Positions 16,220 to 30,170 of a DNA stretch of 30,170 nt are shown in pieces. This stretch comes from a virus. Its lineage: Duplodnaviria; Caudoviricetes. The position numbers were made by a program, and so were the translations under genes. The notes under the pieces are model-generated. The model was not told where the DNA came from, did no database searches, and saw only the letters and a list, made by a program, of their open reading frames with translations. The DNA lies in the IMG/VR virus record IMGVR_UViG_3300037751_000524, positions 1 to 30,170 of that record. One strand, given 5' to 3'. Each line of letters starts with the position of its first letter. Within the stretch, counting starts at the first letter, position 1.

Positions 16220-17281
16220 CTATTTCTTTTTTGTTTTCGCGGCTTTGGCTGCCGGTTTGCTGTCAGACATTGCAGACAGGGTTTTTCGTTTGCGCAGTTT
16301 GGCGGCTTCGAGCTGCAGCACCTGGTCGCTCATGTGGGTGTAGATCTCGGTGGTGCGGATGTCCGAGTGGCCGAGCATGGTCTGCAGGCTGCGCAGGTTC
16401 ACCCCGCTGCTGACGGCGGCTGTGCCGAACGAGTGTCTTAATAGATGATTTCCCACCTGTTTGTCAAGCCCGGCCTTGCGTCCGGCGCGGGCGATCTCGC
16501 GCTTGATGTTGAGGTAGGGCTTTTCGGTCTGCGGGTTGATGAAGAGATAGTCAGCCGGGGCCTTGCCTTTGCAGGCTTCTTTCAGGGCGGCTTCCAGTTC
16601 GGCGCCGATGATCGGCATCTGCCTGATTTTGTGCATCTTGCCGGTGATGATCAGGGAGCGTCCGGCCAGATCGACCTGCTCGCGGGTAAGCTGCAGGGCT
16701 TCGTTGCGTCTCAGGCCGCACCAGGCCATGAGCTGGCCGATGGTGCGCTTGTCGCCCTGGAGCTGGCCGAGGAGGGCGTCGGCTTCGGGCGCGGTGAGCA
16801 CGGGCAGGCGCTTGGGCTGGCAGTATTTTTTTTCGAAGAGCTGAGGATCGGCGCCGGGCTGGTGGCCGTTGTCCCGGGCCCACGCCAGATAGGCGCGAAA
16901 GTAGGTCAACTCGATGTTGATGGTGCGCCGGCTGACGTTCTGCGCCAGGCGGTGGGCCTTGAACCGCTCGTAGTCGATCTGCCGCAGCAGGGTGAGGTGT
17001 TTGTCCCCCAGGTGGGGCAGCAGGCGTTTGAAGGCGCGGTCGCACTCCTCGACGGTCTTGGCCGCCCGGTGGATGGTGTACCAGTCGAGAAAGCGGCCGA
17101 GCAGGTCGACGACGCGGCAGTCGGTGCGCTCGGCGGGGATGCCGCGGACCTCGGCCTCGAAGGCCTTGGCCTCGGCTTCGGTCCCCTGGTAGGGGATGAC
17201 CCGCTGCGGGGCGCTGCGCCCCCGGCTGATGACGATCTGCCACCAGTCGGGGCCTTTGGTCGGGTGTTTGCGGATGGCCAT
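16220..17281 (-). CDS. int: Phage tyrosine integrase
   Basis: Catalytic motifs GLRRNEA, HLLRHSF, LGHSDIRTTEIYTH; adjacent to tRNA-derived att. Confidence 0.95.
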   Translation of the reverse strand: MAIRKHPTKGPDWWQIVISRGRSAPQRVIPYQGTEAEAKAFEAEVRGIPAERTDCRVVDLLGRFLDWYTIHRAAKTVEECDRAFKRLLPHLGDKHLTLLRQIDYERFKAHRLAQNVSRRTINIELTYFRAYLAWARDNGHQPGADPQLFEKKYCQPKRLPVLTAPEADALLGQLQGDKRTIGQLMAWCGLRRNEALQLTREQVDLAGRSLIITGKMHKIRQMPIIGAELEAALKEACKGKAPADYLFINPQTEKPYLNIKREIARAGRKAGLDKQVGNHLLRHSFGTAAVSSGVNLRSLQTMLGHSDIRTTEIYTHMSDQVLQLEAAKLRKRKTLSAMSDSKPAAKAAKTKKK

Positions 17282-18656: not shown

Positions 18657-19064
18657 CTATGCGGAGTTCTGCGCCTGTGAGATTTCCCCCTCGCCTCCGC
18701 CTGCCTGATATTCTTTCGCGCTGTTCTCCAGCATGGTCAGGGCCGCCCGCCTGATCTCTTCGCTGGCGTGGTGCCAGGCGTCGAGCAGACGCTGTTCTTC
18801 GCCGCTGATCCGGCTGCCCGTGTATCCCTCAAGCGCTTCGCGGCCCTCTTCCCCTCGCGCGTCAACGTGGCCAGTTAAAAGCCATCCGACATTTACACCC
18901 AACGCAGTGGCAAGTTTCGAAATCGTATCCGCTCGAGGGTTCGGCGTCTCTCCATTAATAATTAAAGAGATCCTTCCCTGGCCAACGCCCGATTTCCGCG
19001 CAAGGTCGGCAGGTTTTAGGCCTGCGGAATTTAAAGCTTTTTGTACCCTCTCACCAATGGTCAC
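18657..19064 (-). CDS. CI-like XRE helix-turn-helix repressor
   Basis: LKPADLARKSGVGQGRISLIINGETPNPRADTISKLATALGVNVGWLLTG; divergent from early genes; no S24 peptidase domain. Confidence 0.88.
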   Translation of the reverse strand: MTIGERVQKALNSAGLKPADLARKSGVGQGRISLIINGETPNPRADTISKLATALGVNVGWLLTGHVDARGEEGREALEGYTGSRISGEEQRLLDAWHHASEEIRRAALTMLENSAKEYQAGGGEGEISQAQNSA

Positions 19065-19976: not shown

Positions 19977-20261
19977 ATGGGAGCGAAAACGGAGTCAAAG
20001 GTGGCTGAGCGGTTTGAGGAGTGTCTCCGCGAGACAATCGCCCAGGCGGAGCAAACCGCCACCCTGTACCGGGCCACAGCCGGGATCCCCATCCAGGGGA
20101 TGATGGATCAGTTGCTCGGCATCCAGCGCGCCATGTACGCGCTCGTCCCTTATAACTCGCCCTCGTGGCCTGCCGTGGAGGCGCTGCACGACCGCTACTG
20201 GCAGCAGGCCTGTGAAACACGGGATCGGCTTCTGCGGGCTCTGCGCGAGGAGGGGGCGTGA
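19977..20261 (+). CDS. Hypothetical early protein
   Basis: Tight operon packing, RBS GGAGGG. Confidence 0.6.
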   Translation: MGAKTESKVAERFEECLRETIAQAEQTATLYRATAGIPIQGMMDQLLGIQRAMYALVPYNSPSWPAVEALHDRYWQQACETRDRLLRALREEGA

Positions 20262-20455
20262 TCCTCTCCCCCGCCGACATCCACGCCATCGCCGCCGAGG
20301 TGGTCCGGCTGCTCAACGGCCAGACGACCCGTCGCGAGCGGGCGGACGAGGGAGCGGCCCCGCTGCCGGGCAGTTTTCGGGACCGCTGCCGGGACGCCCT
20401 GGAGCGGGAGACCGCCAACGCGGCAAAGACGCGCCGCCGCAAGGGGCTGCGATGA
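20258..20455 (+). CDS. Hypothetical early protein
   Basis: GTGA overlap; ADIHAIAAEVVRLL. Confidence 0.55.
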   Translation: MILSPADIHAIAAEVVRLLNGQTTRRERADEGAAPLPGSFRDRCRDALERETANAAKTRRRKGLR

Positions 20456-20559
20456 TCGGGATACTGTGCATGGTTGGGCTGCTGGCGCTGGTCTGGATCG
20501 GGCTGTTGTGCTGGGATTTCCGGCGCTTAAAGTCGGGTAGAGACGGCGGGCATTTTTAA
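20452..20559 (+). CDS. Small TM peptide
   Basis: ATGA overlap; MIGILCMVGLLALVWIGLLCW. Confidence 0.4.
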   Translation: MIGILCMVGLLALVWIGLLCWDFRRLKSGRDGGHF

Positions 20560-20641
20560 AAAAGGGGATGGGCCGCCCCTGGGCACACCCCGGCCATGTT
20601 AATGCGTTTACCATGTAGTTTTTGATTGTCAAGGAGCGGAT

Positions 20642-20932
20642 ATGCAATTAGCGACGGTGTTAAACCTGATCCGCTGTGAAGCGGAGCGCCAGCAGCAGAT
20701 TGGCAAACACCTGCAATTTACGCAGGTCGACCAGGTGGTGGCCCGGCAGATGATTGAAAACATCGCCGTGCTGTTGAATATGGTCACCACCTGCCCGGTG
20801 GAAGATTTGCAGGTCATGAGCGATTTCGCCACGCGGTGCCAGTCGCACCGCTTCCTGAAAAAGCACTGCGGCGGCTGCGAGGAGTACGATCGAGTCAATC
20901 AATGCCCGGTAGGCAGCGGAGTTCCGCTGTGA
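20642..20932 (+). CDS. Hypothetical Cys-containing protein
   Basis: RBS AAGGAG, 96 aa. Confidence 0.6.
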   Translation: MQLATVLNLIRCEAERQQQIGKHLQFTQVDQVVARQMIENIAVLLNMVTTCPVEDLQVMSDFATRCQSHRFLKKHCGGCEEYDRVNQCPVGSGVPL

Positions 20933-21147
20933 GCCGGGCGTTTCTGTATGTGCGGCTGCGCTACCTGCTGGCGTTGGCGGCGCTCAGCGTCTATCAGTTC
21001 CTGTTTACCCGCTGGGTGCGGCTGTGGCTGTCGTGGCACTACCAGCGGATAGAGGTGGTCGCGTTGGTAGCGGGGGCTTTGTGCCTGTTGGCTTACGTGC
21101 TGGTGATGGGCTGGCTGTGCTTTTCGGTCTGGCCGTACGGGAGGTGA
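20929..21147 (+). CDS. Small two-TM membrane protein
   Basis: GTGA overlap; two hydrophobic segments. Confidence 0.5.
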   Translation: MSRAFLYVRLRYLLALAALSVYQFLFTRWVRLWLSWHYQRIEVVALVAGALCLLAYVLVMGWLCFSVWPYGR

Positions 21148-21150
21148 GCG

Positions 21151-21264
21151 ATGAAGGGTTGGCTGCTGGTGCTGGCGATTGTGCTGCTGTATGGGGTTGT
21201 GGGCGCGCTGGATTGCGCCCAGTTCGACCAGGGCGTGGTTTCTGTGGCGAAGGTGGGCAAATGA
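21151..21264 (+). CDS. Small TM peptide
   Basis: RBS GGAGGT; MKGWLLVLAIVLLYGVVGALD. Confidence 0.5.
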   Translation: MKGWLLVLAIVLLYGVVGALDCAQFDQGVVSVAKVGK

Positions 21265-21413
21265 GCGAGCGCAACCAGGAGAGGCTTTTGACCGACGAGA
21301 CGCCCTGCTTTGGGTGTCCGAACCTGCAGCGGGTGGAGTCGGTAGCGGGGGCGAAGGTGATGGTCCACTGCAGCGGGCAGTGTCCGGAGGTAGCGGCGCA
21401 GGTGTCCGAATGA
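21261..21413 (+). CDS. Small Cys-rich protein
   Basis: ATGA overlap; CFGC...CSGQC. Confidence 0.45.
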   Translation: MSERNQERLLTDETPCFGCPNLQRVESVAGAKVMVHCSGQCPEVAAQVSE

Positions 21414-21637
21414 GCGCGTACGGCTGTCTGATCTGTCCGCCGCTGCGGCGGGAGCTCTGTCTGGTCCCCTGTACGCCGGAGATCGCCGAGGCCCGGGCGA
21501 AGAGACACCAGGAAGTCGAAGAGACGGAGCTGCGCTTCACCCCTCCGGTGAGGCCGGCCAGGGAGTTGAAGCCGTTTTACCGCGACGGGGTGGTGGCTCG
21601 CTCGATCCGACACGAGACGGTCGACAAGTTAAGATAG
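21410..21637 (+). CDS. Hypothetical protein
   Basis: ATGA overlap, 75 aa. Confidence 0.45.
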   Translation: MSAYGCLICPPLRRELCLVPCTPEIAEARAKRHQEVEETELRFTPPVRPARELKPFYRDGVVARSIRHETVDKLR

Positions 21638-21701
21638 TTTCCCTGCCCGGCGCGCGGCTCCTCCTCCTGCCGCGCGCCGGGAATTTTTCACGGGTGATGA
21701 G

Positions 21702-22520
21702 ATGACGGCTGATGCTGCCGAAAAATGGCTGGAAGAGAACGCGATCCGCTGCGAGCGCTTTGAACTGCGCATCTCGCCGCATACCTGCCAGACCTACCAG
21801 CGGGAGTGGCCAATCCGGTGTCAGGGGTGCGCGGTGGCCGGGGTGACCGGACCGCTACCGGTGGCAGAGGCACCGAAAGGCTGGCGGCGCGGCGTCAGGA
21901 TCAAGGCGAAGCACGGGACGAGCCCCTATCCGACGCATTACCAACCAAAGGGAGACGAAGTCGTGGCCAAAATTGCACTGTGCGCCTGCGGGTGTGGCAA
22001 GAAGGGGAAGATTTTGGCGCGCGGGCTGCTGGCGAGCTGCTACGAGAAGGCGCGGAAGGAGGGGAAGCGCGATCAGTTCCCGACCACGATCAAGACGGCC
22101 GGCCATCTTCCTGCCGCCGGGAAAATGGCCGGTGCGGCGCCGTCGGTGGGTGAGATGCTGGCGCCGGAGATGGACCCGGGGCTGAACGATCCGCCGCTGA
22201 TCGAGTCGCCCCGGGCGGCTGAGCACAAGAGACTGCCCGGGGCAGGATATGACGCCTCCGTTTTTGCCCAGGCGCTGGATGCCGTCCTGGGTGACGTCCG
22301 CAAGACCCTGCTGGCCAAGAATGCCGCCTACGGGGACAGCGCGCTGAACCCGGTGCGGATATTCAGCAAGGCCGATCCAGTCGAGCAGCTGCGGGTGCGC
22401 ATTGACGATAAGCTGAGCCGGCTGATACGCGGGCAGGACACGGGTGAGGACACGGAGGGCGACCTTCTGGGTTACCTCATGCTGCTGCGGGTGGCGAATC
22501 GGCGGAGTGGCCATGTCTGA
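21702..22520 (+). CDS. Protein with Cys-rich N-terminus and C-terminal DUF1599/nucleotide-modification-associated-like domain
   Basis: LLAKNAAYGDSALNPVRIFSKAD...RVRIDDKLSRL...DTEGDLLGYLMLL. Confidence 0.65.
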   Translation: MTADAAEKWLEENAIRCERFELRISPHTCQTYQREWPIRCQGCAVAGVTGPLPVAEAPKGWRRGVRIKAKHGTSPYPTHYQPKGDEVVAKIALCACGCGKKGKILARGLLASCYEKARKEGKRDQFPTTIKTAGHLPAAGKMAGAAPSVGEMLAPEMDPGLNDPPLIESPRAAEHKRLPGAGYDASVFAQALDAVLGDVRKTLLAKNAAYGDSALNPVRIFSKADPVEQLRVRIDDKLSRLIRGQDTGEDTEGDLLGYLMLLRVANRRSGHV

Positions 22521-22704
22521 CGTGGTCGACGCGGTAGCGGTGGTGCAGGTGAGGGAGCGCGACGCCCTGGTGATCCAGTACCTAGCGGACTGTGGCGCCT
22601 GCGGGCGGCCGCTGTGGCGTCGGGCGTCGTTTCGGACGGTCCCTGTCGATTATATCGTCTGCGAGAATTGTCGGACGATAAATATGGTGAGGAGGCCGAA
22701 GTGA
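22513..22704 (+). CDS. Zinc-ribbon protein
   Basis: CGACG...CENC. Confidence 0.55.
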   Translation: MSDVVDAVAVVQVRERDALVIQYLADCGACGRPLWRRASFRTVPVDYIVCENCRTINMVRRPK

Positions 22705-22790
22705 TGACCTGCCCCGACTGCGGCTGTGCTTGCCGTCCGCAAGGCCGCTGCTGGTATTGCCCGGCGTGCGGCTGGAGCGTGTGCCAATGA
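22704..22790 (+). CDS. 28-aa zinc-ribbon peptide
   Basis: MTCPDCGCACRPQGRCWYCPACGWSVCQ; coupled at both ends (TGATG, ATGA). Confidence 0.5.
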   Translation: MTCPDCGCACRPQGRCWYCPACGWSVCQ

Positions 22791-22975
22791 TCAGCACCGA
22801 CTGCCCGACCTGTAAGGTCTGCCACCTCTGCCCGCCACGGCAGAAGGCGAAGCATAACCGGGAGGCGGTCGTCGCCTGGGCCAACGATAGAGCTACGCCG
22901 GAGTGCCCGTTTTATGCGGAGCGCACCTACCACGGCATTGATGGGGTGTTCGATTACAGGGAGTGCCGAGTATGA
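22787..22975 (+). CDS. Small Cys-rich protein
   Basis: CPTCKVCHLC; ATGA overlaps at both ends. Confidence 0.5.
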   Translation: MISTDCPTCKVCHLCPPRQKAKHNREAVVAWANDRATPECPFYAERTYHGIDGVFDYRECRV

Positions 22976-23730
22976 TCAGCGGGAAACTGGAAGGGTTCAA
23001 GGAAGCATTGCAGGGTTTGGGCGAACTCCAGAAGAAAATGCCGTCAATCGCCGCGAGGACTTTAACCACACTGGCGTATGACGCGAAGAAGGAAGTTGAG
23101 GGCTGGCTGCCGCGTGTATTAGATCGCCCAACGCCATACACGATGAGAAGCCTGTTTGTTTTCCAGGCGGAGAAGAACGATCTGCGGGCGGCAGTTGCTT
23201 TCAGGAGCGAGTTTGGCAAGATGCCGCGCACGATGATGGACTCTATAGAGGCGTCGCGCTCAATGCGTGTTCAGGTGTTCGGAGGGGCGAGGCGGCACAA
23301 GGCGAGTGAACGGACGCTTCTGTCCAACGGGATCACCACCACGAGCCGGTCCTACCTGGTCCCGGCCAAAGGGGCGCAGCGGGACGCCTACGGCAACGTA
23401 CCCGGCTCCTTTATGAACAAGGTGTTATTCCAGGGAGTGAAGCGTGGCTCAGCGTCTCAGGGTTATCACCGCCCATTGAACAACCGAGGCCAGCACGAAG
23501 CCAAGAGGAAGGGTCAATATTTCGTGATGCGGCGTGATGGAGTAGCTCGCGGCATTTACCAGAACATGGGCAAGAAGGCTCCGCCACTCCCGGTCTTTCT
23601 TTTTGCTGAAAAGGCCCAGTATAAAAAGCGGGTTTCTTTTTATGCCATAGCTCAAGCGGTGATCAACCGAAACTGGCAGAAAAGGTTCAATGAGTCGTAT
23701 GACGTGGTGGCCGCGAAGTATCTACGCTGA
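22972..23730 (+). CDS. Conserved basic phage protein (possibly tail-completion/gpZ-like)
   Basis: AARTLTTLA...LDRPTPYTMRS...DAYGNVP motifs recalled from phage proteins lying just before cos. Confidence 0.6.
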   Translation: MISGKLEGFKEALQGLGELQKKMPSIAARTLTTLAYDAKKEVEGWLPRVLDRPTPYTMRSLFVFQAEKNDLRAAVAFRSEFGKMPRTMMDSIEASRSMRVQVFGGARRHKASERTLLSNGITTTSRSYLVPAKGAQRDAYGNVPGSFMNKVLFQGVKRGSASQGYHRPLNNRGQHEAKRKGQYFVMRRDGVARGIYQNMGKKAPPLPVFLFAEKAQYKKRVSFYAIAQAVINRNWQKRFNESYDVVAAKYLR

Positions 23731-23824
23731 ACTCCCCCGCACCCCCTCTGTTCACGGGTCGGTCAGTAGATGTAGTAGCCATCGCGGCCAGCCGAGGATA
23801 GGGAGTGAAGGCCGCGATGGTCGT

Positions 23825-23868
23825 GGGTCCTTCCACAGCCCCTCATGATACGGGTAGTTCAAACCCCG
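23825..23868 (+). other. Putative lambda-like cos site (cosQ/cosN)
   Basis: GGGTCCTTCC...TACGGGTAGTTCAAACCCCG resembles lambda cosQ GGGTCCT followed by TTACG|GGGCGG; intergenic. Confidence 0.5.
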
Positions 23869-23980
23869 GTTTGTGAGTCCATTTAATTTTTTGCTTTCTG
23901 CTGGAAGAATGGAATATTTCGTTGATTTCCGGCTATTTATGGCCGATTTACCAGAAATGTTATAACGGGCAGAAGGGCAG

Positions 23981-25741
23981 ATGATAGAGGGCCAACCAGA
24001 TAATATCATCCCTTTGCGGCAGCAGGTCGAAGAGCGCATCGCCGCAGAGTCTGCGCAGATCGCCAAGGCTGCGGCAGTAAAGGAAAAACAACCGACGGCG
24101 GGCGGTCCCGACGATCCGCGCTTCGTCCGCCAGTGCCTCGAAGCTAACGAGCGCGGCGACGGCGTCCTCGCTGCCGCGCTCCACCGTGGGAAATTCGTCT
24201 ACGTCAAATCCCGCGACGAAAAATCCAAGGCATGGTTCCGCTTCAACGGCGTCCACTGGGAGGTAGACAAGGCCGACGACCACATGATCATCCCCGAAAC
24301 CGTCGCCCTCGTCTACCAGCGCGAAGCCGACCGGCTCAAGCCCGAGATCGCCGAGGCCCGCGACAAGGCCGAAACCGCCTCCAAGGCCGCCGCCAGGCTG
24401 ACCAAGCAGCTCAAGCAGATGATCAAGGACGATGCGCCCGACGACAGCATCGCCGAGACCGAACGGATGCTGCGCGAAGAGGAATTGACCAGCTCCACCA
24501 CCAGCGCCCTGGTCAAGGCCCTAGTCCGCCTGCAGAAGGACTACGCCGACCGCGTCGACCGCCTGCGCGCCCTGCGCGGGGCCAAGAACTGCCTCGAATT
24601 CTCCCACAAGATCGGCCCCGGCGGCCTCTACATCTACGGCGACGAGGTCGACCAGAAGCCCAACCTGCTGCCCTGCCGCAACTGCGTCATCGACCTGGAG
24701 ACCGGAGAGCCCACAGTCGGCCAACCAGAGGATTTCCTCGTCCGGGCACTGCCCATCAATTACGTCGCAGGCATGGCCCGTCCCGCCTGGGAGAAGTTCA
24801 TCAGCGAGATTCACGAGGACGACGCCGAAAAGGTCGCCCTCATCAAGCGGTGGTGGGGTTACTGCCTCACCGGCCACGTCCGCGAGCAGATGTATATCAT
24901 GTTCACCGGCGACGGTGCCAACGGCAAGGGGACCATGCTGGAGCTCGCCCAGGAGATTTTCGGCGAACTCGCCAAACAGATCATGGCCGAGATGCTCGTC
25001 AAAACCCGCAACGTCCGCTCCTCCACCGGTGCCTCACCCGACATCCTCTCCCTCTACGGCCGGCGCTGGGTATTCGTCGACGAGACCAACGACGGCGACC
25101 GGGTCAACGACGCCGAGATCAAGCGGACCACCGGCGGCAACCGCCGCAGCGGCCGCGGCCTCTTCGACAAGTTCGACACCGATTTCAGGCCCACCCACAA
25201 GCTGAGCATCGTCACCAATCACCCACTCAAGGGGATCGCCGAGACCTACTCCCTCAAGCGACGGCTCATCTACCTGCACTATCCGCTGATCTACGATCCC
25301 GACCCCGAGGCCGCAGCCGAGAACGACCCCGGCAACGCCCACCGCTACCGGCGCATCGACAAGATGCTGGACCAGAAGCTGCGGGATGAATTGGAGGGGA
25401 TACTTGCCTGGATGGTCGAAGGGGCGTTGGAATGGTACCAGACCGGCCTGGCCGTCCCGCAGTGCCTCCTCGATGCCGTCGAACAGGTCAAGGTCAGGGA
25501 GGACACCCTCGGCCAGTTCCTCGCCGCCCGGGCGCGCCTCGGCGAGCACTGCGAAATGCCGGCCAAGGATTTTTTGACCGCATACCAGAAATGGTATGCG
25601 GAGGAAGGCCACTCGGAGAAGTGGAAACCCACCCGCAACGTCACCTACGACAAGCTGCGCGCCAAGGGTATCCGCATCCCCGACAACCGCACCACAGGCG
25701 GCACCACGACCATTTTCGGCCTCGATCTCAACCCCTTCTGA
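23981..25741 (+). CDS. P4/D5-family SF3 helicase (primase C-terminal type)
   Basis: D5_N-like region, Walker A GDGANGKGT, Walker B VFVDET, motif C IVTNH. Confidence 0.9.
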   Translation: MIEGQPDNIIPLRQQVEERIAAESAQIAKAAAVKEKQPTAGGPDDPRFVRQCLEANERGDGVLAAALHRGKFVYVKSRDEKSKAWFRFNGVHWEVDKADDHMIIPETVALVYQREADRLKPEIAEARDKAETASKAAARLTKQLKQMIKDDAPDDSIAETERMLREEELTSSTTSALVKALVRLQKDYADRVDRLRALRGAKNCLEFSHKIGPGGLYIYGDEVDQKPNLLPCRNCVIDLETGEPTVGQPEDFLVRALPINYVAGMARPAWEKFISEIHEDDAEKVALIKRWWGYCLTGHVREQMYIMFTGDGANGKGTMLELAQEIFGELAKQIMAEMLVKTRNVRSSTGASPDILSLYGRRWVFVDETNDGDRVNDAEIKRTTGGNRRSGRGLFDKFDTDFRPTHKLSIVTNHPLKGIAETYSLKRRLIYLHYPLIYDPDPEAAAENDPGNAHRYRRIDKMLDQKLRDELEGILAWMVEGALEWYQTGLAVPQCLLDAVEQVKVREDTLGQFLAARARLGEHCEMPAKDFLTAYQKWYAEEGHSEKWKPTRNVTYDKLRAKGIRIPDNRTTGGTTTIFGLDLNPF

Positions 25742-25792
25742 GGGATGTTTTCCAGGGCCTTTTTCGCTGGCAGATTGATACGGGGGTACGGG

Positions 25793-26090
25793 GTTTTATG
25801 TTTTTATGCTTACCATATGTTTTCAGAAAACGCGAAAACATAGACCTGCTCCAGCGGAATTATTGAGTTTTATGTTTTTATGTTTTTGTTTCACGCGCGC
25901 GCACATGTGAGGCAATGAGAAAAAGGTCCGAACGTGAAAGAAGAATATTTTTTTAAATCCTATAGAGAAAAACACGTTTCAAAAGCATAAAAGCATAAAA
26001 AATAGAGTTAAGTGTTTAAAAACAAAAGGTTTTTTCTTTATGTTTTTGTAATGTTTTCGTTATGTTTTTATGTTTTTGCCGGTTTTGAAA
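25793..26090. repeat. AT-rich putative replication origin with iteron-like repeats
   Basis: Multiple TTTATG(T/C)TT(T) units, tandem on + strand and inverted (AAAAGCATAAAAGCATAAAA at 25981); between helicase and primase. Confidence 0.7.
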
Positions 26091-26116
26091 CCCTCTTTTT
26101 TCTGGATGATTGAATC

Positions 26117-27523
26117 ATGACCACCCTCGAACTCGCAGAATCCCGCGTCCCCATGCGGCGGGTCGGCTCCGAATGGCACGGCCCGTGCCCGGACTGCGGC
26201 GCCGGTAAGAGCGGCGAGCGGCACACCGACCGCTTCAGCGTCAAGGCCGACGGCCGCTTTTTCTGCCGCATCTGCACCCCGGAAGGCGGCGATGCGGTCA
26301 AGTTCTTGCGCAAGTTCGAGGGGAAAAGCTGCCCCGAGGCCCACGAGGCCCTCGGCAAGGCCTGCGACTTCACCGGCTGCCCCGTCCGCGAAAAGTGTCG
26401 CATGGGCGACAAAGCCCCAGGCGTTCCCACGCCTCGCAGCCTCGCCCCGCCCCGGGCCGGCCAGTCGCCCGCCTTCGTCCCGGCCGAGGTCATCCCGCCC
26501 GCCGAGCGCTGGCTGAGAGCGGCCGAGAAGCTCGTCGAGACCGCCCACGCCGCCCTATTGGCCCATCCCGAGCAACTCGCCTATCTCGCCGGACGGGGAC
26601 TGCCGCGCGAAGCCGTCGAAAAGTATCACCTCGGCTGGATATCTGATGATCTGTTCCGCCCCCGCTCCACCTGGGGTTTGTCAGAAGAATTCTGGGACGG
26701 AGGCAAGACTAAGAAACTCAAGATCCACCGCGGCGTCCTCATCCCGACTTTCGTCGACGAGCGGCCGCACCGTCTGCGCGTCCGCCGTCCCAAGGAAGAC
26801 CTTAAGGAAGGCGAGCCCGGCTATATCGAGGTCAAGGGGAGCGGAAACGACCGGGTCATCCTCAACCCGGCCGCCCGCGCCGTCGTCGTCATCGAGAGCG
26901 ACCTCGACGCCCTGCTCATCGACTGGCTCGCCGGGGATATCGTTGGCGCCATGCCCACCGTCAGCGCCTCGGCCAAACCGAAGGAGTCGACCTGGCCAAT
27001 CCTGCAGCAGGCCCTCTGCATCCTCGTCGCCTCCGATTATGAGCCCGTATGGGATGAGGCCAGTCAGCGCTGGACCAACGTCGGCGGATCGGCTGCGCAG
27101 TGGTGGCGGCAGCAATTCTCCCGCGCCAAGCGCTGGCCCGTCCCAGCCGGTAAGGACCCCGGGGAGGCCTACCAGCAGGGCGTCGATATCCGAGCCTGGA
27201 TACTCGCCGGGTTGCCTCCCGTGTTTCACCTCCCGGTGGTGCCGAACGAGCCGAAGCCGGCCACTCCACCGCCGGCCGCCGCCGCGCCGCCTGTGCGCCT
27301 CGCCCCCATTGCCGAGCCGGTGCACGGCGTCAGTGCCGGCGGGCGTCCGTTTATCATCGTCAACACCCGCGGCCAGTTTCGGCAGATGACCGAGCAGCAC
27401 CCCGGCGTCGCCGTGGTCGGCCGCAGCGAGCTGGGGCGCATCGATCCCGAGGCGACCGAGGCGGTGCTGATGGTCAAGGGTATTTTTCCCGGGTGCGAAG
27501 TGCTGCGCACCGACATACTGTAG
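26117..27523 (+). CDS. DNA primase (zinc finger + TOPRIM)
   Basis: EWHGPCPDCG...DRF...FCRIC zinc finger; YLAGRGL; VIESDLDA and KDPGE TOPRIM-like motifs. Confidence 0.85.
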   Translation: MTTLELAESRVPMRRVGSEWHGPCPDCGAGKSGERHTDRFSVKADGRFFCRICTPEGGDAVKFLRKFEGKSCPEAHEALGKACDFTGCPVREKCRMGDKAPGVPTPRSLAPPRAGQSPAFVPAEVIPPAERWLRAAEKLVETAHAALLAHPEQLAYLAGRGLPREAVEKYHLGWISDDLFRPRSTWGLSEEFWDGGKTKKLKIHRGVLIPTFVDERPHRLRVRRPKEDLKEGEPGYIEVKGSGNDRVILNPAARAVVVIESDLDALLIDWLAGDIVGAMPTVSASAKPKESTWPILQQALCILVASDYEPVWDEASQRWTNVGGSAAQWWRQQFSRAKRWPVPAGKDPGEAYQQGVDIRAWILAGLPPVFHLPVVPNEPKPATPPPAAAAPPVRLAPIAEPVHGVSAGGRPFIIVNTRGQFRQMTEQHPGVAVVGRSELGRIDPEATEAVLMVKGIFPGCEVLRTDIL

Positions 27524-27532
27524 GAGTCCCCC

Positions 27533-27754
27533 ATGTCCTGGATGACCATGACCTGCGGTAAATGCCGCCACGAAGCCGACATCGACGAATTTTGTCGCAC
27601 GCCCGTCTCCGGCGAGCTGCCGCCAGGGGTCTACCAGTGCCCCGCCTGCGGCGTTGCCGTGCGCCGGCAGACGGCCGGGCCTGGCACGCGGTATGAGTCG
27701 GGGTTGTACGTGCCCGGGCCGGTGGAGATTGTGGTGGTGAATTCGAGATTTTAG
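27533..27754 (+). CDS. Zinc-ribbon protein
   Basis: CGKC...CPACG; RBS AGGAG. Confidence 0.7.
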   Translation: MSWMTMTCGKCRHEADIDEFCRTPVSGELPPGVYQCPACGVAVRRQTAGPGTRYESGLYVPGPVEIVVVNSRF

Positions 27755-27809
27755 CGACAACGAATCAGCTCAAGGGCGCGAAGCGTCCGCTTGCAGCGCC
27801 TTATTATGG
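27755..27809 (-). repeat. attC: attC-like site 1 (R'' core degenerate, AAT)
   Basis: Minus: CCATAAT AAGGC GCTGCAAGCGGACGC TTC GCGCCCTTGAGC TGATTC GTTGTCG. Confidence 0.7.
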
Positions 27810-27824
27810 CGCGGGAGGTAGAGA

Positions 27825-28127
27825 GTGAGAAAATTTAAAAAGGAAGATAGGTATTTAGTGCTGAAGCGGAAGGATATTGCACACTCCTTGTCGGAGCTTG
27901 AGCAACATCTGCTTATGTGTATTTCCGCAAAAATCCACAAAGATCACCCCCGCCACTGTGTTGTAGTGGAACACGACTGGCCGGAGTATGAGCCAACGTG
28001 GAAGGCCATCGAAAATAGGATGAATGGAAAACCCCCTGAGACCGGCCACCGTGGGAGATCGAATGCTGCCGCAGTTGGAGACTGCGTACCGGACGGGGCA
28101 AATGCCCCCACTGCTGCCATGGAATGA
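27825..28127 (+). CDS. Cassette ORF, phage-type hypothetical protein
   Basis: RBS GGGAGG; RYLVLKRKD...CVVVEHDWPEYEPTWKAIE resembles a common small phage protein. Confidence 0.75.
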   Translation: MRKFKKEDRYLVLKRKDIAHSLSELEQHLLMCISAKIHKDHPRHCVVVEHDWPEYEPTWKAIENRMNGKPPETGHRGRSNAAAVGDCVPDGANAPTAAME

Positions 28128-28135
28128 GTAGCGAT

Positions 28136-28194
28136 GGCGAACGGGCCGCGTTTCAGCGGTGAGCGAAGCGATCCGCTGAAAACAGTGGTTAGCC
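28136..28194 (-). repeat. attC: attC-like site 2 (59 bp)
   Basis: Minus: GGCTAAC CACT GTTTTCAGCGG ATCGCTTCGCTCA CCGCTGAAAC GCGGCCC GTTCGCC. Confidence 0.8.
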
Positions 28195-28211
28195 ATTTTA
28201 CGGAGGTCAAA

Positions 28212-28466
28212 TTGAGCGAAGAACGTAAAAAATACAGGTGTAACAAAGCGGATGAGTGCGGAGTTGCGGACGAATGTTTCCACGGAAAACCGCACGAGCC
28301 TATCCGCTGCGGGAACTGTTCAACGTGGTGCGATCAGTCTATTTTCTGCCAACCGGGGACGGCGTGTCTCGGCAGAAAAGGAAGGCTAAATGAAGAAAAC
28401 GGAAAGATGAATAAGCCTGTCCGCGAGCTGTTGCCGATGAAGTGCGTCGAGATAGTTTGTGGCTAA
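28212..28466 (+). CDS. Cassette ORF, Cys-rich protein
   Basis: RBS GGAGG plus TTG (alternative ATG 28134); stop TAA lies inside GGCTAAC. Confidence 0.6.
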   Translation: MSEERKKYRCNKADECGVADECFHGKPHEPIRCGNCSTWCDQSIFCQPGTACLGRKGRLNEENGKMNKPVRELLPMKCVEIVCG

Positions 28467-28524
28467 CGATTGGAGGTAACGAGCATGAGCGGAGCGAATG
28501 ACTCTGTTGACCGTTTGGTTATCG
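28461..28524 (-). repeat. attC: attC-like site 3
   Basis: Minus: CGATAAC CAAAC GGTCAACAGAGTCAT TCGCTCCGCTC ATGCTCGTTACC TCCAATC GTTAGCC. Confidence 0.8.
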
Positions 28525-28685
28525 AGCAGCAGTGTAGAGCATTGGATTGTGTTGCTGATATGCGAATGGCTGCATCTCGCTATCGACAAATGGGAGTCAA
28601 GGCATTAGCAAGGGAATATGAGACGCAGGCAGCAAAAGCAGAAAAGTGGGTGCTGGTTATGTGCCTATCGCCGGAGGAGCTATGA
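28485..28685 (+). CDS. Cassette ORF, hypothetical protein
   Basis: RBS GGAGGT and ATG lie inside attC 3; ATGA coupling to next ORF. Confidence 0.55.
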   Translation: MSGANDSVDRLVIEQQCRALDCVADMRMAASRYRQMGVKALAREYETQAAKAEKWVLVMCLSPEEL

Positions 28686-28873
28686 AATATAACAGTCTAC
28701 TTTCATGCCTATCTTGTGCAGCAAACAACGGGGAGTGCCAATACAAAGTCGAGGGTCGGCCATACCCAGCGCGGGGACACTACAATATCGCGTGTGGCGG
28801 GTGTTTGTATTACGTTCCGAAATGCGAAATATCTGAGGTAAAAGGAGAACGGTACATTACCAATAGCGCATAA
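28682..28873 (+). CDS. Cassette ORF, Cys-rich protein
   Basis: RBS GGAGGAG; CLSC...C...CGGC; stop inside GCATAAC. Confidence 0.6.
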   Translation: MKYNSLLSCLSCAANNGECQYKVEGRPYPARGHYNIACGGCLYYVPKCEISEVKGERYITNSA

Positions 28874-28952
28874 CGCGCCGATAAGCGGCGGAGCAGGAAG
28901 CCCCGACAGGGGCCGGACGGTGAAACCGTCCGCTTGATTGGGCTGGTTCAAA
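28868..28952 (-). repeat. attC: attC-like site 4 (85 bp)
   Basis: Minus: TTTGAAC CAGCC CAATCAAGCGGACGG ... CCGCCGCTTAT CGGCGC GTTATGC. Confidence 0.85.
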
Positions 28953-28989
28953 AGACTTTGCGCTGCCCCGCAGGGGCATAGGAGGACAG

Positions 28990-29181
28990 ATGGCATGCGA
29001 GGAATGTGAGTGTCTCAAAAAAGAGGCCGACCACGAGAACGCCCGAGCCGTTGAGATGGGCAAACAACTTGAAGAGGTTGCACGGGAAGCAAAAGGGTTG
29101 CGCGAAATGATAAAACGCAAACTCCTATGGACGGATGGGGAGATTGATAGTCTGATTGCCGATTCGCGCAAAGTCTTTTGA
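28990..29181 (+). CDS. Cassette ORF, small coiled-coil protein
   Basis: RBS AGGAGG; stop TGA inside TTTGAAC. Confidence 0.7.
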   Translation: MACEECECLKKEADHENARAVEMGKQLEEVAREAKGLREMIKRKLLWTDGEIDSLIADSRKVF

Positions 29182-29234
29182 ACGACTGAGGTCAGCCGCC
29201 CGTCTTTTGGGTCGGCTGGAGCGATTGGTTCACT
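29177..29234 (-). repeat. attC: attC-like site 5
   Basis: Minus: AGTGAAC CAATC GCTCCAGCCGACCC AAAAGAC GGGCGGCTGACC TCAGTC GTTCAAA. Confidence 0.88.
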
Positions 29235-29272
29235 GGCACCGGACCCCGCTCTTGCCCGCAGCTAAAACCTTG

Positions 29273-29300
29273 TTGACAACATAACTAGTTATGATAATAT
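29273..29300 (+). promoter_or_regulatory. Cassette-internal sigma70 promoter with palindromic operator
   Basis: TTGACA-16 nt-TAATAT with TGn; perfect palindrome CATAACTAGTTATG at 29280-29293. Confidence 0.75.
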
Positions 29301-29323
29301 ATACTCAACAAGGAGGTGAAAAA

Positions 29324-29497
29324 ATGCACGAGCTTTATGTTCGATGGACAGGGCGGTCGGAAATGGTGCCCCACAAATGGTATCGCACGCTGCAAGCGGC
29401 GTGGATGGCCTTCCACCGGATGCGACAGGCCCATGATTACGCAGCCTGTGAGATCCGTGACGAAAAAGGGGAAACCGTGGCGAGGTGGTCGAAATGA
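29324..29497 (+). CDS. Cassette ORF, hypothetical protein (57 aa)
   Basis: RBS AAGGAGGTG downstream of the promoter. Confidence 0.7.
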   Translation: MHELYVRWTGRSEMVPHKWYRTLQAAWMAFHRMRQAHDYAACEIRDEKGETVARWSK

Positions 29498-29649
29498 CTA
29501 AAGATGAGCTTCGCAAACTCATTACTGGTCTGGACGATGACAACCTCCGCACCCTGCGGGCGATCATCAACGGCAAACTCGGAAAGCGGCAGATAACCCC
29601 GGAACAACAAGCCGCCATGCAAGAGGGACACAAAAAGCGGGGACCTTAA
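29494..29649 (+). CDS. Cassette ORF, small helical basic protein (51 aa)
   Basis: Manual translation MTKDELRKLITGLDDDNLRTLRAIINGKLGKRQITPEQQAAMQEGHKKRGP; ATGA overlap. Confidence 0.65.
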   Translation: MTKDELRKLITGLDDDNLRTLRAIINGKLGKRQITPEQQAAMQEGHKKRGP

Positions 29650-29661
29650 GCGGGCGGTGCC

Positions 29662-29719
29662 AGTGAACACGGCGCTGAACCGCCGTCTTTTTGGGCGGCT
29701 TCCAGCGACTTGGTTAAAC
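29662..29719 (-). repeat. attC: attC-like site 6
   Basis: Minus: GTTTAAC CAAGTC GCTGGAAGCCGCCC AAAAAGAC GGCGGTTCAGC GCCGT GTTCACT. Confidence 0.82.
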
Positions 29720-29736
29720 CAGCGAAAGGACCTCAC

Positions 29737-30045
29737 ATGGACAGAGCGGATCAGCGACAATTAACCGAATATTGGCATAAAAACACCCACCACCTGAACG
29801 AGCAAATTGATGATGCGTTCAAACTGGCGCAAGACCAGGCGTATGAACTCGGATTAAAGCGGGGCATGGCAGTTACGGCCCGCGACCTGGAAGCTGCAAC
29901 AATTGAAGTTGGACAACTCAAACAGGGCATGTGGCAAATAAAAGACGCTGAAATTGCTAGATGGAAAGACGCTTACGAAAACATGCGTGATTTTGCCGTA
30001 AAAGGCGGTTTGGATATTACCTGCTACGGGCCAGAGTCGGTTTAA
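29737..30045 (+). CDS. Cassette ORF, hypothetical helical protein
   Basis: RBS AAGGA before ATG 29737; stop inside GTTTAAC. Confidence 0.7.
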   Translation: MDRADQRQLTEYWHKNTHHLNEQIDDAFKLAQDQAYELGLKRGMAVTARDLEAATIEVGQLKQGMWQIKDAEIARWKDAYENMRDFAVKGGLDITCYGPESV

Positions 30046-30099
30046 CGGGGCGGGCTGAGGAGCCCCCGAAGGGGAGTCTCTTCCAGCTGCTGGTTCGGG
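30040..30099 (-). repeat. attC: attC-like site 7
   Basis: Minus: CCCGAAC CAGCA GCTGGAAGAGACTCCCC TTCG GGGGCTCCTCAGC CCGCCCC GTTAAAC. Confidence 0.78.
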
Positions 30100-30170
30100 A
30101 CGCGAAGCGGCCCGGAGCAGCAGCGCTCCTCAGCCCGCCCCGTTCGATCCGCGTAGCGGGTCGAACGACC

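Follow-up and report, generated by a model that had tools for sequence, protein, structure and literature searches.

The window examined here, a stretch of 30,170 nucleotides covering positions 1 to 30,170 of the tailed-phage (Caudoviricetes) record IMGVR_UViG_3300037751_000524, carries an array of seven attC sites, the recombination hairpins of integron gene cassettes, toward its right end. In a textbook integron, a cassette is a gene followed by its attC site, both on the same strand. Here the order appears mirrored. We read the locus as an integrase-less array in a temperate phage, each unit of which consists of a hairpin and, behind it, a gene carried on the strand that folds; the enzyme that reshuffles the array is probably an integron integrase (IntI) of the host, acting in trans. 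We give this reading a probability of roughly 0.7. Three of its elements, namely the polarity of the hairpins, the strand of the genes, and the gain and loss of units at the AAC of the R' core on the plus strand in related DNA, are established by sequence comparison. On this evidence, the reversed layout is a new variant of integron cassettes that is common in phage DNA.

The polarity of an attC site can be read from its fold. In the recombining bottom strand, R' carries AAC at its 5' end and the extrahelical bases lie 16 and 23/24 from R'' (Nivina et al., 2016, PMC5027507; this and the other papers cited are represented here by the portions of text available). A scanner built on this bottom-strand grammar and applied to both strands of 27.5-30.2 kb returned seven sites on the plus strand, with scores of 11.5-15.5, and zero on the minus strand. 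Six scored at least 12, against 0.05 per 2.67 kb in a Markov-resampled null. Bulged bases lie on the 3' arm of the plus strand in all seven hairpins and at 16/17 and 23/24 in six of them (the first bulge is G only in C, D and E), and six of the seven have R'/R'' cores ending in AAC/GTT, site A being the exception with ATT at R''. We also built a covariance model of our own, distinct from that of IntegronFinder, from 62 bacterial top-strand sites, taking the orientation of each from the gene that precedes it, and searched both strands unfiltered. It assigned six of the seven sites to the minus strand (scores in Table 1), three of them at E<0.001, while the sole plus-strand score at any site was 8.6 bits, at site B; site F gave no match at E<=10. 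Because the training sites had been chosen by the same scanner, the two strand calls are not fully independent. Both agree with an earlier note on this DNA, which had placed the sites on the minus strand from their bulges and had suggested a covariance model as the check.

Two further candidate indicators of polarity were rejected: strand energies, since the plus and minus folds differ by less than 2 kcal/mol, and long complementary cassette ends, which have a median of 9 nt in viral and bacterial sets alike and do not give polarity. With seven attC sites in 2.35 kb (27755-30099) and no intI on the contig, the locus falls under the published definition of an integrase-free attC cluster (CALIN), that is, at least two same-strand attC sites within 4 kb.

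The genes run against this polarity. As the earlier note had claimed, all eight plausible open reading frames (ORFs) of the array are on the plus strand, each with a purine-rich stretch resembling a ribosome-binding site (RBS). Where a canonical cassette would have its gene on the top strand before attC, all eight lie on the bottom strand with the hairpin in front. Four of the six intervals end with a stop codon in the R' core, at just the positions given in that note (TAA 28466, TAA 28873, TGA 29181, TAA 30045; P ~2e-6 with the interiors shuffled). Conversely, none of the six minus-strand ORFs of at least 55 aa ends in an R'' core, and eight minus-strand ORFs that were checked have no PHROG or Pfam match, most of them spanning a hairpin. 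The description of strands and stops thus held, while that of the array had to be amended: beyond 30045 there is a seventh unit, which has no ORF, two cassettes are merged in the first interval, cassette E contains its own putative promoter, and relatives were detected for just three of the eight ORFs.

To see how general the reversal is, we searched for a single degenerate attC pattern, which yielded 133 loci in viral contigs (13 of 64 parts scanned) and 148 in bacterial genomes (2 of 64 parts); the pattern favours one attC type, and the counts cover that type. Cassettes were scored by the best ORF between same-strand neighbours. Among 160 viral cassettes, 115 were reversed, 19 canonical and 26 unclear, compared with 26, 148 and 28 among 202 bacterial cassettes. 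By record, the ratio of reversed to canonical to tied was 52:5:9 in viruses (n=66) versus 3:46:3 in bacteria (n=52; Fisher p 1.6e-20), and ORF length alone gave 47:7:12 and 3:47:2. The positions of the stop codons are a near mirror, falling in R' in 51/115 reversed viral cassettes and in R'' in 52/148 canonical bacterial ones. The sites themselves are alike in the two sets, with G16 in 245/275 viral and 292/314 bacterial sites and a median length of 60 nt. This survey, proposed in the earlier note together with the idea of a mirror-image cassette class, supports that idea alongside the covariance strand call and the R' junctions described below. The genes are also co-directional with phage transcription, as had been noted: at this locus the array sits 3' of rightward phage genes, and of 121 flanks of viral loci, 66 carry a long ORF on the bottom strand and 14 on the top strand. 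The further suggestion that the cargo is phage-like fared less evenly. PHROG matches (1e-6) were found for 37/147 bottom-strand viral cassette ORFs, 9 of the 37 being DNA methyltransferases, and for 16/150 bacterial top-strand cassette ORFs (a random draw from 179), a modest difference, and only one of the eight ORFs in the window has such a match.

Which enzyme moves these units? The only integrase on the contig is of prophage type, reaching 98 bits against the IntI model TIGR02249 (cut-off 265), and the spacing from its catalytic R to H-x-x-R is 88 aa, whereas an IntI aligned with it has 132 aa. Among 50 array-bearing viral records examined out of 72 candidates, IntI scored above the cut-off in one, with a fragment in one more. 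In 10 of 12 array-bearing viral records that are at least 90% complete, no tyrosine recombinase (PF00589) was matched. From these two results, a contig integrase that is not IntI and near-complete records that lack a tyrosine recombinase, we infer that a host IntI acts in trans.

It is also conceivable, though unlikely, that the units are as described but are moved by a phage-encoded enzyme (either the prophage integrase or an IntI- or Xer-like recombinase encoded in the 58% of the genome that is missing) or by host XerC/D. The contig is incomplete, and integrons carry intI at the end that is missing here, which would suit such an enzyme. The integrase at hand lacks IntI spacing, however, and the near-complete records speak against a phage-borne alternative. 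Furthermore, the hairpins match bacterial attC sites, and a phage site of the reversed type is active with IntI1.

Additional support for an integron-type enzyme comes from the ends of the viral arrays. A TAG lies 5-8 nt past the AAC in 18/37 terminal viral cores, against 288/8504 (3.4%) in the null and 0/294 attC sites. This second box resembles the site before intI in one viral contig (L058), as well as a Shewanella attI that Qi et al., 2023 cite. Double-box ends of this kind also occur without intI in L046, L079, L091, L096, L107 and L111, and L008 3551-3900 is a short reversed array with such an end. The two viral loci seen with a full intI, L058 and L049, have canonical cassettes. In the latter (554-2556), a phage-like contig carries a complete canonical integron, with intI, attI and one cassette for a small multidrug resistance (SMR)-type efflux protein, amid tail and lysis genes. 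On another viral contig (L059/L215), two facing arrays end nearly identically to the attI of a Desulfopila integron, and their cassettes score canonical.

A quite improbable alternative is that the phage has captured part of a bacterial integron in which the cassettes lack genes or have promoters of their own, the plus-strand ORFs being chance or secondary. Five of the eight ORFs have no relatives, the last unit (G) has no ORF, cassette E exists in an empty form, and 26/202 bacterial cassettes score reversed, all of which would fit. Against this, ORF A and gene X, a 154-aa gene described below, come from phage families in which attC is mostly absent, the site being beside or arrayed on the gene strand at 5/29 and 0/4 loci, respectively. 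PHROG matches are confined to one strand, with 0/122 top-strand viral ORFs matched, and stops in R' are far beyond chance. The ORF A family itself (29 viral loci) is mostly a free phage gene that stands beside or among bottom-strand hairpins at the 5 loci just counted; its relatives in L008, L018 and L023 stop in an R'-type core.

Complementary cassette ends do not assign a hairpin to a gene, and therefore we sought natural junctions. Parts of the array were found in 8 sequencing runs from 7 studies, of which six were compared (X1, X2, X3, X4, X6 and X7); counts here are among the matches listed. Relative to the window, three of the four joints fall at R' cores. One connects the native gene on the left of the array to site B (27759-28140; X1 and X2, with sides of 26 and 70 letters), another connects it to site D (27759-28872; X1 and X4, 20 and 79 letters), and a third leads to site G (28139-30044; X3, side of 30 letters). 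The unit 28140-28466 recurs with 0 differences next to other neighbours in X1, as does 28872-29183 in X3, and further shared pieces begin at 28465, 29181 and 30041-30043. A metagenome contig, L339, has the native gene (90%) followed by a different hairpin (38.8 bits, minus), the 154-aa gene X and then site G, joined at the core. Between different viral contigs, alignments end in R' in 22/120 cases, in R'' in 1/120 and elsewhere in 97/120, the pairs not being independent. Read from these natural junctions, the mobile unit at the locus is shown to be an attC hairpin together with the gene that follows, its limits lying at the AAC crossover in R' on the plus strand. At the left boundary (27755-27761), comparison with L339 339-349 and with X1, X2 and X4 shows variation of 1-4 nt just 5' of AAC.

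These comparisons also account for the irregular units. In the first interval, a deletion joint at 6 nt of common sequence (28048-28053) links cassette A with the final part of cassette X and lengthens ORF A by ~30 codons, and the break at 28048/28053 is seen in X1, X2, X3 and X4; the fusion of two cassettes explains why ORF A has no stop in the core. Unit G is 100% identical over 125 nt to L339 901-1029 and is found with other neighbours in X1, X2, X6 and X7, and its presence in L339 and four runs led us to reject an assembly artefact. Within it, a 20-nt perfect inverted copy of the left arm of hairpin G would compete with the attC fold. Cassette E (29235-29668) is a shell with exchangeable contents: it is empty in X1, holds 385 nt with a promoter-like site and two ORFs here, and in X7 has a different insert of 628 letters. 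The shell may represent an intermediate in the filling of a cassette, or else an insertion hotspot in its own right.

The same junctions largely refute, and leave as very improbable, the view that these are ordinary cassettes recombining on the other strand, each hairpin belonging to the gene in front and cut at the right-hand core with only the bulges mirrored: although left-core stops resemble canonical stops in R'', and hairpin-only matches and one viral pair break at the right core, the shared pieces with intact-cassette cargo all start or stop at the left core (among the matches listed), alignment ends favour R' over R'' by the counts above, the terminal hairpin core has its partner downstream in 24/44 cases and upstream in 9/48 (the latter mostly missed hairpins by eye), and C1 starts within the hairpin in front of it.

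Returning to reversed units moved by a host enzyme, we propose the following mechanism. The host IntI would recombine the reversed cassettes in trans, with new units entering past the contig, where the promoter-distal end would carry an attI-like site. Cassette genes would be read off the rightward early transcript of the phage, cassette E being self-promoted. The direction of insertion is set by attC (PMC5027507). If the founding array had its folding strand running the way of phage transcription, only reversed cassettes would be expressed and ordinary bacterial ones would be silenced; either polarity could thus lock in, which fits the two kinds of array seen, and selection would maintain a separate phage pool. 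Excision rises if the lagging strand is templated by the bottom strand (Loot et al., 2017, PMC5371416). With the putative replication origin on the left, the folding plus strand would be that template, giving more excision and a fast turnover of accessory genes.

It is likely that phages maintain their own cassette pool. We advance more tentatively, as a possibility on the doubtful side of even, that many phages run a mirror-image integron: an attI-ended, integrase-free platform for reversed phage accessory cassettes that uses host IntI, is insulated by polarity and receives cassettes made on the phage side. Under such insulation, bacterial defence cassettes would be silent in the phage, and phage cassettes would be silent or antisense in a host integron. 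Cassette E and unit G, as examples of empty shells, may be intermediates of phage-side cassette making.

Several observations weigh against the reading of reversed, host-mobilized units. Five of the 66 viral records are canonical, and under our own covariance model so is the array of phage TJE1. Matches that cover a hairpin alone, at 2-4 differences, end on the R'' side too, at 28948/9 (X1, X4, X7), 27821/2 (X3, X6) and 29231 (X1), breaks at sites A, D and E that we read as sister hairpins leading other genes; one viral pair likewise breaks at R''. The left joints hold one A beyond a clean AAC crossover, and two have sides of fewer than 30 letters. The geometry of the sites is unusual, in that A has ATT, F has no terminal T and was missed by the model, and five sites have spacer lengths other than 6/5. 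ORFs C1, C2, D, E1 and E2 (five of eight) have no detected relative. No intI lies beside the array on a contig that is 42% complete and ends within the array, and a phage recombinase may sit in the missing part. The TAG box was found in just 2/7 distinct attI sites adjoining an intI, and 'attI-like' is therefore the strongest label for the terminal cores. Finally, the position of the origin is one that we infer from the place of AT-rich repeats (25788..26086) between two replication genes.

Phage CALINs have been described before. Qi et al., 2023 (PMC9892861) reported 17 of them and IntI1 activity on five sites, with bottom strands recombining above top strands. Those arrays resemble the present one and the viral arrays surveyed in being intI-less attC clusters in tailed phages with small cargo and, in the survey, DNA methyltransferases, and sites of that kind are recombined by IntI1; genes opposite to attC are not mentioned in the available text of that paper. 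Two of the phages show the reversal. In ctTUS972, our model finds five sites whose top strand is the one opposite the annotated genes, and PH101 has three annotated bottom-strand genes among its four sites, one interval also having a plausible top-strand ORF. PH101_attC2, which IntI1 recombined more through its bottom than its top strand (PMC9892861), has annotated neighbours on the bottom strand. In P12002L, our model found no attC at E<=0.5. Short core-to-core palindromes without a hairpin body are present in TJE1 and PH101 (L317 306-321, L319 37145-37164).

Bacterial arrays, both sedentary chromosomal and class 1 (PMC5027507, PMC5371416), share the hairpin anatomy, the AAC cut in R', the complementary ends and a stop often in the core. 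In contrast, the gene here is on the folding strand behind the hairpin and ends in R' rather than R'', the contig has no intI, no top-strand upstream cassette promoter (Pc) is needed, and the attI-like end is promoter-distal. Single attC sites lacking an integrase (SALINs) and attG sites (10.1101/2022.09.11.507474) likewise involve cassettes placed by IntI outside integrons and served by a resident promoter; SALIN cassettes are canonical, whereas viral arrays have reversed genes and often an attI-like second box at the terminal core. Integrons with an inverted integrase (Cury et al., 2016, 10.1101/030866) share an anomaly of orientation, but there intI is flipped relative to attC and here the cassette genes are. 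Reversal is not stated in the available portions of 10.1101/2022.02.06.479319, 10.1101/2022.09.11.507474, 10.1101/030866, PMC13323075 or PMC8618304, and we found no publication stating it in a literature sample thin on subscription journals.

The origin of cassettes is largely unknown (Loot et al., 2017, PMC5371416). A mirror class with equally precise stops in the other core would imply that the process making cassettes is able to attach a gene in either orientation, which would constrain models of cassette formation. Polarity would also be a simple marker of phage-pool and bacterial-pool cassettes, allowing traffic between the pools to be gauged. Moreover, phages would be using a host adaptation enzyme to shuffle accessory genes, some of them for DNA methyltransferases with a possible role against restriction.

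The window is the whole of a linear viral contig with an estimated completeness of 42%, derived from a temperate phage, and the array continues past its end (Table 1).

Table 1. Coordinates of the array and of its surroundings in the window. Strands of attC sites refer to the top strand in the canonical sense, the bottom strand that folds being plus.
Feature	Position	Strand	Remarks
Tail genes	1-15.9 kb		
Tyrosine integrase, prophage-type, not IntI	16220..17281	-	phrog_1 match; TIGR02249 below cut-off; catalytic spacing
Repressor	18657-19064		
D5-type primase/helicase	23981..25741	+	family matches
AT-rich 19-nt repeats, family D1, 9 copies	25788..26086	no strand	putative replication origin
Zinc-finger primase-like gene	26117..27523	+	family matches
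Native 73-aa gene	27533..27754	+	fixed left flank of array; 90% identical copy in L339
attC A	27755..27809	-	13.4 bits; bulges C16/G/T24; R'' ATT instead of GTT
ORF A, phrog_7810 family	27825..28127	+	residues 4-76, E 1e-16; 3' third from another cassette
3' end of cassette X (154-aa gene, phrog_17260)	28048..28142	+	98% match to L339 813-913
attC B	28136..28194	-	24.3 bits minus, 8.6 plus; bulges A16/T23
ORF B, 84 aa, Cys-rich	28212..28466	+	TAA in R' of site C; 3 relatives at 56-65%
attC C	28461..28524	-	25.9 bits; bulges G16/T20/A24; contains RBS-like stretch and ATG of next gene
ORF C1, 66 aa	28485..28685	+	start within hairpin C; no PHROG match
ORF C2, 63 aa	28682..28873	+	TAA in R' of site D; no relative among viral contigs
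attC D	28868..28952	-	17.6 bits; bulges G17/T24
ORF D, 63 aa	28990..29181	+	TGA in R' of site E
attC E	29177..29234	-	42.3 bits, E 5e-9; G16/T23 type
Cassette E inner cargo, replaceable	29252..29636	+	promoter-like site, E1, E2
Sigma-70-like promoter, cassette E	29273..29300	+	10/12 matches, TG extension
ORF E1	29324..29497	+	
ORF E2	29494..29649	+	
attC F, atypical, weakest	29662..29719	-	score 11.5; C17, terminal T absent; no covariance match
ORF F, 102 aa	29737..30045	+	TAA in R' of site G; a relative in viral DNA, 68% across 47 aa
attC G	30040..30099	-	12.5 bits; bulges C16/T23
Unit G, ORF-less, nested palindromes	30040..30166	-	attC G to next core 30160-30166; array leaves contig

Relatives were detected for three of the eight cassette ORFs only (A, B and F), and a collection of annotated phages gave just six short matches, all within ORF A. 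A search of 20000-30170 against Rfam returned nothing at gathering level or with a convincing E-value, only 2 weak matches. Relatives of the primase occur at four loci in viral contigs, and an array was seen in 0/4 of the DNA stretches examined. Among more distant prophages, 21/401 genomes match the primase, and at least two sites downstream were found in 0/18 stretches checked; the array is therefore not a trait of the wider group. A relative of the integrase at 54%, named 'uncultured Desulfuromusa', is a mere hint of the host.

The ends of cassette D form an 18-nt perfect inverted repeat. The promoter-like site of cassette E is the best of 5 found, against 1.4 expected, and directly after the self-promoted E1 and E2, hairpin F doubles on the plus strand as a stem resembling an intrinsic terminator (29669-29694).

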